From Patellaria atrata CBS 101060 (taxonomy: Eukaryota): DNA of 64,000 nt. Position 1 is the first letter of the stretch. Each line of letters starts with the position of its first letter. Below the pieces are notes generated by a model, which saw only the letters and a program-made list of their open reading frames with translations, was not told the DNA's origin and made no database searches. Location: NCBI GenBank assembly GCA_010093705.1, contig MU006089.1, forward strand, positions 2,467,561 through 2,531,560, in the 5' to 3' direction. Position numbers and translations under genes: made by a program. Below, piece by piece: positions 6,620 through 16,921 of the stretch.

Positions 6620-7759
6620 TCAGTTGCCTGCTAAGCTGGCATAATTCACGTCGTCCGCCCCTGGTGGTGGTGCGAGTGCGCCCATATTGTCAAGCTCGTC
6701 ATGAGCTGATGCTGCAGCAATCTGCGCAGGAGTGCCTGTAGCACCCCGACCACCTCTGGCTTTCCCTACGACCGCCCTTCCTTCTTTTGCGTGTACCATT
6801 CTTTGATCCAGTTCCATTGTATCTAGCGGTTTTGGTTTTCCCCATCTCACCCTCAGAGGGCACCCTTTAATTACTGCTTTCCCTTGGCAGGCCTCCGCGG
6901 CAGCTTCTGCTCCTTGACGGTTCATGTAGTTTAAGAACGCACAATGAGACCGATGAGAGCAGACAATAGATCGCAGAGCACCGAATTGCGAGAAGAAAGT
7001 GCGTAGTTCATGTTCGGGAAGATCATCCTCAACCCCAGTGACGAACAAGGACGTGACATTAGGATCGGCTGGGGGAAGGATGTCTTCAGGCGTTATAGGT
7101 ACTTGAGCAACACTTGGGAATCCACGCCCCCCGTTTCTTCCCCCACGAGCTCCGCGAGTGCCTGGCGGACCGCTGGGTCTGGAGTCTCGCGTCCGGATGG
7201 GGCCCGGAATATGCTTTGGGTCTTCATTTCCTTCCGGCGCTGGGAGTGCCTTCTGGCCTTCTGATCCCTCTGCATCGATCCGCCGTTGCTTCTTGTAATA
7301 CGGTTCACTGTTTGCTAGCCGTCGTAGTAGCTCTCTAGCCTTCTCGTCGGTCTTCTCGTATGCTTCGATAGCACCCCTACCCTCTTCAATCTCTTTCTCG
7401 TGCTCTTGTGCGTAATATTCTCTGTTGATGGTGCTTTGCGGTCCCGGGGCGACCATTTTGAGAGCGGCATCCCTAACAACAATGGGAAGACCGAAGGACA
7501 GATCCAGCATACAGCATTGACAGCAGTTCTTTAGCCTAGCGCATGTCAGGCAGATGTTGGTCCGCTTTTGTCTCGCAGTCCGATCTGCCTTCCATCGGAA
7601 CACAGTGAAAGGCCTGGTACAGATCTTGCACTCAGCTCCGTGATCTTCCTTTAGCATCTGAACGTAGGGATTATCGGGTAGGCATCTTTCGCAAACTGAT
7701 GGGAAGTCAGTAGTTTCCCAACCCGAACGGTTGAGGTCTTGTTTTATTTGTGGAGGCAT
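6620..7759 (-). CDS. SLT11: Pre-mRNA splicing factor Slt11/Ecm2/Cwf5 (RBM22 family)
   Basis: WETTDFPSVCERCLPDNPY..CKICTRPFTVFRW..CQCCMLDL zinc-binding region plus a C-terminal RRM. Intronless. Confidence 0.95.
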   Translation of the reverse strand: MPPQIKQDLNRSGWETTDFPSVCERCLPDNPYVQMLKEDHGAECKICTRPFTVFRWKADRTARQKRTNICLTCARLKNCCQCCMLDLSFGLPIVVRDAALKMVAPGPQSTINREYYAQEHEKEIEEGRGAIEAYEKTDEKARELLRRLANSEPYYKKQRRIDAEGSEGQKALPAPEGNEDPKHIPGPIRTRDSRPSGPPGTRGARGGRNGGRGFPSVAQVPITPEDILPPADPNVTSLFVTGVEDDLPEHELRTFFSQFGALRSIVCSHRSHCAFLNYMNRQGAEAAAEACQGKAVIKGCPLRVRWGKPKPLDTMELDQRMVHAKEGRAVVGKARGGRGATGTPAQIAAASAHDELDNMGALAPPPGADDVNYASLAGN

Positions 7760-8070: not shown

Positions 8071-8353
8071 GTCGACTTTACGTGAGTAAAATTCCACCCC
8101 CCAACGTGCAAAATGCGAGCGCAATACTGATCAACGATGCCCTATAGTTCATAGAATCATTTCTATAGTAAACGTCCTCTACTGAGTTTCTTACCAGAGC
8201 CTCAGAATCCAACCTGGCTGATGATTTTCAACATCTGCACCCCAGAGTGATGCCTTTTACTTCTGCTTCGGCGGAAGTGGTGATGATCTCGACCCCGTTT
8301 CTGCTCTGGCTTCGGCCTGTAGGACTGGGTGGGTGTGGATGGATCTGACAGGC
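8071..8353 (+). ncRNA. U3: U3 snoRNA containing a spliceosomal intron (8082-8147)
   Basis: Spliced 5' end GTCGACTTTAC|TTCATAGAATCATTTCTATAG resembles yeast U3 boxes A'/A. Box C' TGATGA 8219, box B AGAGTGA 8244, box C TGATGA 8281, box D CTGA 8345. Intron GTGAGT..ACTGAT..TATAG. Confidence 0.93.
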
Positions 8354-14064: not shown

Positions 14065-15006
14065 ATGGCGAGCGAAGCCAAGATCATTATCTTAACAGGT
14101 GCTTCAAGAGGTGCGTCCCGTTTCATCCCCAGCTCCGAGGACATCTTTTCGTCCAGTACTGAGATTGACTCGTTCTAGGTATTGGTTTAGCTGTCGCTCA
14201 CTATATCCTCAGACAGAACTGCAAACTGGTTGTCGTGGCGCGCAGCAAAGCCCCGTTGCAAAAGTTGTCCGATGAGTACCCTGACCAGATTGAATATTTG
14301 GCCGGAGACATATCCGACTTCTCGCTAGCACAGAAAACTGTTGATCTAGCCATAGCGAGATGGAAGCGCCTTGACGGTCTAATTGTGAATCACGGTGTCC
14401 TAAATCCCATCAAACGCGTCAGTGATGTCGATGTAGAAGAGTGGAGAACAGCGTTCGACATCAACGTCTTTTCAGTAGTCGCATTGGTAATAATAGAGGG
14501 GTGAGAGGGCATTGAGGTGAGAGACTTGCTAACTGTTCCAAGGTAAAAGCGGCCCTGCCCGCATTACGCGATACCCGCGGACGCATTGTTTTAACGTCTT
14601 CTGGTGCAGCTGTCGGCGCTTATTCGACGTGGGGCAGTTACGGGGCGTCCAAAGCAGTTCTCAATCATTTAGCTATGACACTTGCAACTGAGGAACCTGA
14701 GGTCACGACTATCGCTATCCGTCCAGGGGTAGTCGATACGGAGATGCAACGTGAGATAAGAGAAGTCCATCACAGGGCTATGGACAAAAAGGACGCCGAA
14801 AAGTTTGCAAGTCTAAAAGAGAACGGTGGTCTATTGAGGCCCGAACAGCCAGGGAATGTCATGGCTCGTCTTGTTCTAGACGCGCCAAAAGACTTGAATG
14901 GAAAGTTTCTCAAGTACGTTTTATGCCCCCAAGCTTACTGGGACCATCATAGCTCACACACAGAAGCTGGAACGACCCTACCTTGAGCCAATTTCAAGAC
15001 GAGTAG
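14065..15006 (+). CDS. Short-chain dehydrogenase/reductase (benzil/sepiapterin-reductase-like)
   Basis: TGASRGIG, SSGAA, YGASK catalytic YxxxK, IRPGVVDT. Three introns. Confidence 0.9.
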
Positions 15007-15112
15007 AGTCTCTTAGAGCTATTGTTCTGGTTATAGTTGATGTTTCTAACATAAAGTGGTTAGCTTCTAAGAGCAGCGCAGTATCGCCATGGGAAGAAAC
15101 GGTTTGAAGGGA

Positions 15113-15208
15113 ACAATCAGTCGAAAGATGAAAAGCTGGATGTTTTGACAGCATGAGGGTGATAACCTTCAGTATTAACATGGAATATATCATTGTTACA
15201 TCATGTGA
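15113..15208 (-). ncRNA. Intronic box C/D snoRNA, snR53-like double guide
   Basis: Box C variant ATGATGT. D' guide TATTCCATGTTAATA-CTGA is antisense to 18S UAUUAGCAUGGAAUA (yeast Am796 register). D guide GCTTTTCATCTTTCGA-CTGA is antisense to LSU UCGAAAGAUGAAAAGC. Lies in intron 15242-15046. Confidence 0.85.
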
Positions 15209-15336
15209 ATATAACTGTACGAAAAGAAGAATATCTACTCACCCAGTGCCAATCTTTCAAAAACTTCGACTGTTATGCGCAAATTAGTAATGCACTCTAC
15301 CAAGCAATCATAGTAATGGGATGATATCGAAGCTAA

Positions 15337-15412
15337 GATGTCAGGTAATCGAACCACGTTTTGTTCATCATTGTTTGTCGGTATTTGATAGTACAATGTT
15401 GCTCATCAGGTG
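15337..15412 (-). ncRNA. Intronic box C/D snoRNA, double guide
   Basis: Boxes C TGATGA, D' CCGA, C' TGATGA, D CTGA. D' guide GTACTATCAAATA matches 18S UAUUUGAUAGUAC. D guide TGGTTCGATTA matches LSU UAAUCGAACCA. Lies in intron 15448-15270. Confidence 0.85.
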
Positions 15413-15762
15413 CAGCTCAGAGAAATAAAGATAAAAAAGCCGACGTACCTATGCTAACAAGCGCGCATGACCGCAAGTTATTTCATGTTGATAGAATTTA
15501 CTCAATTATTTTTCATGAAAGGGATTACATGTCTCGAGTAATAGAAGTGTAAGATCAAGGAAGGTTCTACTAGGTCATTGATTACTGGACAGCAGTCACA
15601 GTAATATTGTTTGGTAGGTAAACTACTTTGTACGATGAGAATTTCACGTCGCCGCGCGGTGTAAGACGATGACTGTATTATTCCACAGGGTATCTAGATA
15701 TCCTATTATCGGGTTAGCCCAGTTACAATGCAATATCAAGGTAACTGGAAAAGCATTTCAGG

Positions 15763-15857
15763 GTTTTCAGAAAAGTCCGTTTGGCAAGGACAGTGTAATC
15801 ACCAGAGGAGCAAAGCTCGATTGTAAGATAGGGGCGACACAATCGTTCATCATTAAG
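15763..15857 (-). ncRNA. Intronic box C/D snoRNA, snR60/U80-like guide
   Basis: Box C ATGATGA. Guide TCGCCCCTAT followed by a degenerate D' (CTTA) is antisense to LSU AUAGGGGCGA (yeast Gm908). C'-like TGATTA, D CTGA. Lies in intron 15894 to about 15703. Confidence 0.65.
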
Positions 15858-16188
15858 GATAGAAATAGGATGATGAGATTTGGGGTGAACTTACAGTACC
15901 GTTCTTGATGGATTGCAAGCAGATACCTTAATTCTGATGCTCAAAAGAAGTGGAAGTTTTGAAGCTTCTTGCGAAAACTTAAGCTCATTCACTAGCGCGT
16001 CGGCTCTGACGATATTCCGAGCCCCTCGCAACAAGAATGCTCCAAGCATCCAAAAGCTTCAAATAATGCTGCCTCCCCCATCCAAACTCAAGATGAGGCG
16101 TCGTAATTCTAGAAGAACCTTTCATATTTTCTTTTACAACTCGAACTTACCTTGAACCTTCCATTCCCAAAAGCGGATCGGTCCAGTC

Positions 16189-16921
16189 ATGTCAGATAGA
16201 GAAGTAGGAGGTATCTTACGGCACCTCTCAAGGCACCGTGCTTTGTCGCGCTTGTCTATGTTGAAAGAAATACTGATCACTTGATTCACTGTAGGCAAAG
16301 ATGACTTGTCATTACCAAAAGGTATAAGCTGGCCCCCTAGAATTTAAGTCGCTTTCAACTGCCTTTCCCACTTCACCAAGCTTACCCAGCTTATTCGGAT
16401 TAACAACCCCACCCGGTGCCATTATCGTGTATATATCATGGCAAAAGAGGCTGATTCAACTCTACCAACAGCAACGGTCCAAAAAATCATAACGGAAATT
16501 CTCTCTTCAGACCCCGGTGTCAATTTCGCGAAGGAGACCCGAGACCTTCTCATCGAGTGCTGTGTTGAGTTCATCACCCTCATATCCTCTGAAGCCAACG
16601 ACATTGCGGAAAAAGAAGCGAAGAAAACAATAGCTTGCGAGCATGTGAAGGCTGCGTTACAGGAACTTGGCTTTAGCGATTATGTCCAGGACGTCCTGGA
16701 TGTGGCGCAAGACCATAAGAAACAACAGGTGGTATGTTATAGCTCTGAGCCGGCTCGAACGAACAATAATCTGATCCTATCACCTGTTATAGTCGCGTGA
16801 AAAGAAACAGAGCTTACTCGAGCAAAGTGGTATGACGGAGGAGGAATTGATTAGGCAGCAACAGGAGCTATTTCGATCAGCGAACGACAAGTTTAACCAG
16901 TCATATCCTGAAACTGCTTAG
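16189..16921 (+). CDS. NCB2: Negative cofactor 2 beta subunit (Dr1), histone fold
   Basis: Spliced MSDREVGGKDDLSLPKATVQKII...ETRDLLIECCVEFITLISSEAN..KKTIACEHV. Exons 16189-16210, 16295-16321, 16472-16731 and about 16793-16921. Confidence 0.95.

Follow-up and report, generated by a model that had tools for sequence, protein, structure and literature searches.

Our analysis revealed evidence for a small nucleolar RNA (snoRNA) host gene in a 64,000-nucleotide (nt) stretch of the Patellaria atrata CBS 101060 genome (assembly GCA_010093705.1, contig MU006089.1, positions 2,467,561 to 2,531,560 of the forward strand), hereafter referred to as the window. On the minus strand, divergent from an NCB2-like gene, this window very probably contains a non-protein-coding host gene of the UHG/GAS5 type that carries three box C/D guide RNAs in its introns (Table 1). 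A non-coding snoRNA host divergent from NCB2 had already been proposed in the first-pass annotation of this DNA, and the boxes, the introns, the composite arrangement of the two and the absence of coding potential all argue in favour of that proposal. A further point was absent from that annotation: as predicted from its boxes and homologies, the locus is the conserved snR67-snR53 cluster in an intron-borne form. The two outer guides, snoRNA 1 and snoRNA 3, are clear relatives of CD26 and CD11, two snoRNAs cloned from Neurospora crassa (Nc).

The minus strand between 14700 and 16300 was read directly for splice signals and C/D boxes. Three well-formed introns were found at the positions given in the first-pass annotation, as was the 27-nt exon that it had described between the last two. 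For intron 1 an alternative TAG ends at 15694. A single box C/D unit lies inside each of the three introns (minus strand, 15046-15894), as had likewise been claimed. In all three units we located a C box, with one-base deviations in snoRNA 2 and snoRNA 3, and a D box reading CUGA. Specifically, snoRNA 1 shows C (AUGAUGA, 15853-15847), D′ (CUUA, 15827-15824), a C′-like UGAUUA (15801-15796) and two candidates for D, both reading CUGA (15770-15767 and 15761-15758). The layout of snoRNA 2 is the most regular of the three: C (CUGAUGA, 15409-15403), a 21-nt guide and D′ (CCGA, 15381-15378) are followed after a gap of 7 nt by C′ (AUGAUGA, 15371-15365, with a perfect UGAUGA), a 20-nt guide and D (CUGA, 15344-15341). 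SnoRNA 3 has C (AUGAUGU, 15204-15198), D′ (CUGA, 15172-15169) and D (CUGA, 15120-15117). In introns 1, 2 and 3, the point about 4 nt ahead of the C box lies 37, 35 and 34 nt from the 5′ splice site, and the branch A follows about 42-51 nt (snoRNA 1, depending on the CUGA taken), 55 nt and 55 nt after the end of the snoRNA, respectively. The spacing is nearly constant, and for Neurospora snoRNAs Liu 2009 gives a similar distance from the 5′ splice site, 41-60 nt (PMC2780460).

Table 1. Coordinates of the putative snoRNA host gene, its three guide RNAs and the two flanking genes (positions in the window).
Feature	Position	Strand	Remarks
Putative first exon	15895..16200	-	estimated extent; upper coordinate a guess within the common 544-nt spacer to the NCB2-like gene
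Intron 1, 192 nt	15703..15894	-	GTAAGT at 15894, GCTAAC 15718-15713, TAG ending 15703
snoRNA 1	15756..15857	-	snR67 / Nc CD26 (CD_26) family
Exon 2, 254 nt	15449..15702	-	without C/D or other RNA family signal
Intron 2, 179 nt	15270..15448	-	GTACGT at 15448, TACTAAT 15289-15283, CAG ending 15270
snoRNA 2	15339..15413	-	ends approximate; family unassigned; direct reading
Exon 3, 27 nt	15243..15269	-	between introns 2 and 3
Intron 3, 197 nt	15046..15242	-	GTGAGT at 15242, GCTAAC 15064-15059, TAG ending 15046
snoRNA 3	15115..15208	-	ends approximate; snR53 / Nc CD11 (CD_11) family
Putative last exon	14900..15045	-	estimated extent; 3′ splice site at 15046
Short-chain dehydrogenase	14169-14504 and 14516-14983 (open reading frames)	+	sequence match; stop codon ends 14986
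NF-Y/NC2-type histone-fold protein (NCB2-like)	from 16438	+	domain match

Pairs of C and D boxes alone are common in the window and therefore uninformative, as a plain scan of both strands returned 20 C boxes that have a candidate D box. For this reason we scanned for composites, in which fungal splice signals (5′ splice site, branch motif and 3′ AG) enclose UGAUG[A/U]...CUGA in a snoRNA-like position. Only three of the 74 intron-like elements on both strands of the window are composites, and all three are those of this locus. When 15046-15900 was shuffled 20000 times by mononucleotides, one composite occurred in 13 shuffles and two or more in none.

These numbers also bear on a different account, in which the snoRNAs are real but are cut from an unspliced polycistronic precursor by Rnt1 (RNase III) and exonucleases, or are expressed from promoters of their own, with the splice motifs being incidental. 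The snR67-snR53 unit of Saccharomyces cerevisiae is intronless, and cleavage by an endonuclease together with exonucleases frees its snoRNAs. Yeast has five polycistronic snoRNA units, among them snR67-snR53, in that order (bioRxiv 10.1101/352906). Moreover, the two snoRNAs of Neurospora cluster V each have their own putative promoter, yet both are co-transcribed (PMC2780460), and exon 2 of the present locus would be large enough to hold a second promoter. On the other hand, all three units are equipped with a canonical 5′ splice site, branch motif and 3′ AG at near-equal distances, a composite that never arose twice in the shuffles, and in N. crassa 45 of 55 C/D snoRNAs are intron-encoded and the cluster hosts are spliced (PMC2780460). 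We consider an unspliced origin quite improbable and prefer the spliced host. Within the spliced host, one promoter might serve all three snoRNAs or a second one might lie in exon 2, and sequence alone may be compatible with either; co-transcription was found in Neurospora even where internal promoters seemed present (PMC2780460). Exon 2 folds no better than its shuffles (z -0.86), and a scan for promoters and terminators found nothing, its models being bacterial and thus irrelevant for a fungus.

The first-pass annotation had noted the lack of a convincing open reading frame (ORF), and this impression holds. In the spliced model the longest ORF starting with ATG has 59 amino acids and spans exon 1 and exon 2, and the putative first exon, which has to lie between the 5′ splice site at 15894 and the ATG of the NCB2-like gene at 16438, offers short ORFs only. 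A Pfam search with four ORFs of the region gave no match above the cut-off. Three of them had no match of any kind, and the fourth had a zinc-finger match with an E-value of 0.15 and 12 bits, against a Pfam cut-off of 27. One might still suspect a missed protein-coding or small-peptide gene whose ordinary mRNA introns harbour the snoRNAs, as many fungal snoRNAs are found in introns of protein genes (PMC2780460) and the 59-amino-acid ORF does cross a splice junction of the model. We regard this as highly improbable, since no ORF is longer, none of the four matched above the cut-off in a search confined to Pfam, and both the 27-nt exon and the ORF sizes fit the non-coding hosts of Neurospora. 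ORFs in those hosts measure only 159-267 bp, and their spliced products were confirmed by reverse transcription PCR (RT-PCR) (PMC2780460).

Predicted targets of the guides were sought in rRNA sequences that served as stand-ins. They were obtained by scanning a bacterial and archaeal genome collection with the 16-base complement of the snoRNA 3 D guide, which returned 107 loci, comprising 98 chance matches in bacterial DNA and 9 fungal large subunit (LSU) rDNA contigs that contaminate bacterial assemblies. According to Rfam, the stand-ins hold a complete 18S, 5.8S and LSU 1-941 (L072), LSU 1-2255 (L021) and LSU 26-2221 (L007). The nine contaminant records (L004, L007, L011, L018, L021, L072, L084, L092 and L107) are titled as bacterial isolates or metagenome-assembled genomes (MAGs), among them Arthrobacter globiformis, Motilimonas pumila, Streptomyces actuosus, Streptomyces sp. 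and Pedobacter and Erythrobacter MAGs, and are actually fungal rDNA; four of the nine were confirmed by eukaryotic small subunit (SSU)/5.8S/LSU models, and the remaining five were recognised from the context of their LSU sequence alone. For every D or D′ box, the preceding 20 nt were slid along these rRNAs, with the fifth base required to be Watson-Crick paired and at most one mismatch allowed, and compared with 1000 shuffled guides. Four of seven candidate guides gave duplexes of 12-16 bp, which 0-31 of 1000 shuffles matched in quality. In a looser control based on energy only (120 shuffles), three of the seven were equalled by no more than 5 shuffles, namely snoRNA 3 D′, snoRNA 3 D and snoRNA 2 D′.

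The family assignment of snoRNA 3 is best seen from its similarity to Nc CD11, which Canzler 2018 files under snR53 (CD_11), just as CD26 is filed under snR67 (CD_26) (PMC5824354). By eye, AUUCCAUG is identical in 8 of 8 positions and the last 20 nt, UUUUCAUCUUUCGACUGAUU, in 20 of 20; the latter include the whole D guide, 15 nt of which are identical to the guide of Nc CD11. The D′ guides of the two have their core in common. This D guide pairs in 16 of 16 positions with LSU A357 of L021 (0/1000 shuffles; energy-only 1/120), and the D′ guide forms 14 bp, including one G-U, with 18S A793 of L072 (3/1000; energy-only 0/120). Both rRNA targets are those assigned to Nc CD11, for which Liu 2009 lists 18S-Am793, 26S-Am356 and U6-Am47 with primer-extension support (PMC2780460). 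Yeast snR53 guides 18S-Am796, the same site (PMC8307265), and a 25S A356 target (Nc numbering) is described across the Pezizomycotina by Canzler 2018 (PMC5824354). The D′ guide (15173-15186) reads UUAAUA where Nc CD11 reads CUAGUC, with an A in place of the G of CD11, and the stand-in 18S has AUUAGC where N. crassa 18S has ACUAGC, with a U for C opposite the changed guide base. With the stand-in taken as the partner, this looks like a compensatory change. Set by eye against an 11-nt segment of N. crassa U6, the guide forms pairs at 10 positions, one of them a G-U. In Rfam, the family snoU6-53 also matched the D′ half of snoRNA 3 with 16.4 bits against a gathering threshold of 36; we attribute this to a shared AUUAGCAUGG-type target and not to family membership. 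SnoRNA 3 would thus be predicted to direct, via D′, methylation at 18S-Am796 (yeast numbering), the A in AUUAGCAUGG, and possibly also of a U6 small nuclear RNA (snRNA) A in GAUUAGCAUGG, and via D that of the Pezizomycotina-specific 25S A (Nc A356), the A in UCGAAAGAUG.

SnoRNA 1 shares three identical blocks with Nc CD26 (by eye), namely GUGUCGCCCCUAUC (14/14), the C′-like block UGGUGAU (7/7) and GCCAAACG (8/8). The first of them is the conserved D′ antisense element, which is followed here by CUUA and in Nc CD26 by CAUA (by eye). A permissive Rfam search over 3.5 kb aligned snoRNA 1 to the full snR67 model (RF01177; 18.1 bits, E 1.8), and in this alignment the C box, the UGUCGCCCC core of the guide and a tail with two CUGA motifs are retained. 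The 3′ end of snoRNA 1, CUGAAAACCCUGA (15758-15770), has its two CUGA spaced like those of the Rfam snR67 consensus, CUGAAAAUUCUGA. At G900 of L021 the D′ guide pairs 10/10 with AUAGGGGCGA, a stretch present in all three stand-ins that cover it. This match is not significant alone, but it lands on the G908-equivalent of Canzler 2018, where the CD_26 D′ guide is reported to fit the snR60 site (yeast G908) in Dothideomycetes, Eurotiomycetes and Leotiomycetes (PMC5824354). The SLT11 protein encoded in the window is closest to Dothideomycetes (79% identity to Lepidopterella palustris, 77% to Coniosporium apollinis), and the agreement at the G908 site is therefore with the right lineage. As to the D side, the bases before the second CUGA fit N. 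crassa 26S around Um2682 (yeast U2724) in 8 of the first 9 positions (by eye), which looks like a remnant of a yeast-type snR67 D guide. SnoRNA 1 would thus be expected to direct 2′-O-methylation of the 25S G corresponding to yeast G908, the G in AUAGGGGCG, via its D′ guide, and it may also serve the ancestral 25S G2619. The SLT11/ECM2 gene mentioned above codes for a pre-mRNA splicing factor with an RRM domain and occupies a single exon at 6620-7759 on the minus strand. Its nearest relatives are all Dothideomycetes with at most 79% identity, and no close sequenced relative was present in the protein collection.

Compared with S. cerevisiae, the locus holds the same two families in the same 5′-to-3′ order, with one extra snoRNA between them. 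The 18S-Am796 target of snR53, the snR67 core UGUCGCCCC and the double CUGA tail are kept, whereas the snR67 D guide for U2724 is present only as the remnant just described, and yeast snR53 has no 25S guide, unlike snoRNA 3. In its architecture the locus resembles mammalian UHG/SNHG1 and GAS5, which are likewise multi-intron transcripts without a meaningful ORF, with one C/D snoRNA per intron and exons ill-suited to coding; their snoRNA content is unrelated to that of this locus. Mammalian snoRNA host genes typically have a 5′-TOP promoter, and their spliced RNA undergoes nonsense-mediated decay. The features of a UHG-like host that we found here are several introns with one snoRNA each, canonical splice signals and the lack of a long ORF. 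The same comparison with UHG was drawn for Neurospora hosts by Liu 2009, who described six C/D snoRNA clusters, five of them kept with yeast and located in UHG-like hosts (PMC2780460). The hosts of Neurospora also carry one C/D snoRNA per intron, with canonical splice signals and only short ORFs, and CD26 and CD11 share a cluster in N. crassa. The first-pass annotation took as its premise that filamentous fungi encode C/D snoRNAs within introns of hosts that are non-coding; this is documented, and for Neurospora clusters I-V it was validated by RT-PCR (PMC2780460).

The middle element, snoRNA 2, is less easily placed. No counterpart was visible among the 55 N. crassa snoRNA sequences compared by eye, permissive Rfam searches yielded only TtnuCD13 with a meaningless E-value of 2.1, and literature searches with its guide motifs returned unrelated papers only. 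It may still match a published family outside the sources compared, for example in the family alignments of Canzler 2018. Its D′ guide forms 13 perfect base pairs with 18S U121 of L072 (5/1000 shuffles; energy-only 5/120), and a second match with one mismatch over 15 positions lies at LSU U1866 of L021. The D guide forms 12 bp, including one G-U, with LSU U914 of L021 (31/1000 shuffles). SnoRNA 2 would accordingly be predicted to direct methylation of the 18S U in UAUUUGAUAG, the U before GAUAGUAC, through D′ and, less surely, of the 25S U in CUAAUCGAACC through D. Yeast Am28 and Am100 are the sites numbered Am27 and Am99 in human, so that human numbering is one lower here, and the stand-in 18S (L072) is one base shorter than the yeast sequence near position 75. 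Because of this numbering, and not of an alignment, stand-in U121 is probably the counterpart of human Um121. In a table of human sites the latter is guided by SNORD4A/B, and Am27 and Am99 are listed there as well (PMC11550049). The D′ guide of snoRNA 2 would thus point to the same site as SNORD4A/B by numbering (the U before GAUAG), whereas no sequence likeness of snoRNA 2 to SNORD4A/B was found in Rfam at E-values up to 10. Nc CD10 contains UAUUUGAUAGUA, which is the sense of the 18S stretch and hence the complement of the snoRNA 2 guide at 15382-15394 (by eye); this is probably a coincidence.

Given the lack of relatives among the sequences compared, snoRNA 2 could be a non-functional decayed copy, or a chance C/D-like arrangement, within an intron of a real snR67-snR53 host. 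The two competing matches of its D′ guide would fit this explanation, as would its D guide, which 47 of 120 shuffles equalled by energy. We nevertheless think it unlikely, as the complete, symmetric layout sits at the same intron position as in the two homologous neighbours and the perfect 13-bp match of the D′ guide obeys the position-5 rule. It is possible, and we suggest it only tentatively, that the middle snoRNA represents an uncatalogued fungal C/D family inside the snR67-snR53 cluster, which installs the Um121 counterpart, a site that budding yeast leaves unmethylated, together with an unreported 25S Um in CUAAUCGAACC. A literature search for RiboMeth-seq on filamentous fungi found nothing. 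The middle snoRNA with its predicted 18S target is the only part of the locus that may exceed the existing catalogue.

Several observations weigh against the interpretation of the locus as a spliced host with three functional guides. Transcription, splicing, processing, the methylations and a single transcript for all three snoRNAs are inferred from the DNA, and the evidence for conservation consists of comparisons with published N. crassa and yeast sequences and with Rfam. Permissive Rfam searches of 3.5 kb, of 441 nt and of the whole window yielded sub-threshold matches only, and the best score of the three snoRNAs, that of snoRNA 1 to snR67, reaches 18.1 bits against a gathering threshold of 55 and is absent when the whole window is searched, while the Rfam family snR53 did not match snoRNA 3 even at E-values up to 10. 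Two C boxes deviate from the consensus by one base, with C for R before UGAUGA in snoRNA 2 and a changed last base (UGAUGU) in snoRNA 3. Folds of snoRNAs 1, 2 and 3 are no better than those of shuffles (z -1.46, -0.04 and -0.09), which is usual for C/D snoRNAs, and no convincing terminal stem of 4-5 bp adjoins their boxes; in snoRNA 2, GAGCU and AGCUU can form an outer pairing of 5 bp. Among the guides, that of snoRNA 1 D′ was equalled by 220 of 1000 shuffles (15/120 in the energy-only test), neither D guide of snoRNA 1 is convincing (955/1000 for the first CUGA, 533/1000 for the second), and the D guide of snoRNA 2 fails the energy-only test. The rRNAs used are fungal stand-ins rather than the organism's own, and they cover neither the 3′ third of the LSU nor U2 and U6. 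Finally, the D-guide match of snoRNA 3 is partly circular, because the stand-ins were fetched with that very 16-mer; its occurrence in all nine fungal LSU contigs found is a result in itself despite this circularity. Further permissive Rfam matches, to TtnuCD13, mir-2834 and CRISPR-DR33, were taken as chance.

If the locus is indeed such a host, transcription by RNA polymerase II would begin within the 544 nt that separate the locus from the NCB2-like gene and would yield a precursor with at least four exons. Splicing would release the three introns as lariats; after debranching, exonucleases would trim each of them back to the C/D core protected by the proteins of the small nucleolar ribonucleoprotein (snoRNP). 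The products would be three guide RNAs of about 75-100 nt, whose snoRNPs would methylate 18S, 25S and perhaps U6, with the spliced exons probably being a by-product.

As regards the neighbourhood, the flanks had been named as a short-chain dehydrogenase and NCB2, and our matches to a dehydrogenase and to an NF-Y/NC2 histone-fold protein agree with both names. The snoRNA locus lies head-to-head with the NCB2-like gene and is convergent with the dehydrogenase gene. Only 59 nt lie between the dehydrogenase stop codon, which ends at 14986 on the plus strand, and the final 3′ splice site of the host at 15046 on the minus strand, and the putative last exon of the host therefore overlaps the 3′ end of the dehydrogenase gene in antisense. 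At its gathering thresholds, Rfam detected none of the three snoRNAs in the window, so that annotation would miss them. This extends the earlier expectation that protein-centred annotation overlooks the locus: the stretch is left as intergenic and is also empty in Rfam at curated thresholds. Similarly, snoRNA clusters of Aspergillus fumigatus were listed simply as intergenic by Jöchl 2008 (PMC2377427), which shows how annotation overlooks hosts. The only RNA family in the window above its curated Rfam threshold is a U3 snoRNA gene at 8137-8353 on the plus strand (Fungi_U3, full model, 130.1 bits against a gathering threshold of 95).

Intronic snoRNAs in non-coding hosts are already known in fungi. 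The understanding of snoRNA genes is unchanged by our finding, which would not surprise a specialist and is useful for annotation: it provides a concrete description, with three predicted methylation guides and their putative host gene, for a stretch left as intergenic. It also extends the snR67-snR53 cluster, in a predicted intron-borne form, to a Dothideomycete-like genome, which fits the published claim about the snR60 site for this class. If the tentative reading of the middle snoRNA were true, methylation at the Um121 counterpart would either be ancestral to fungi and animals and have been lost in yeasts, or it would have been re-invented by a new guide.

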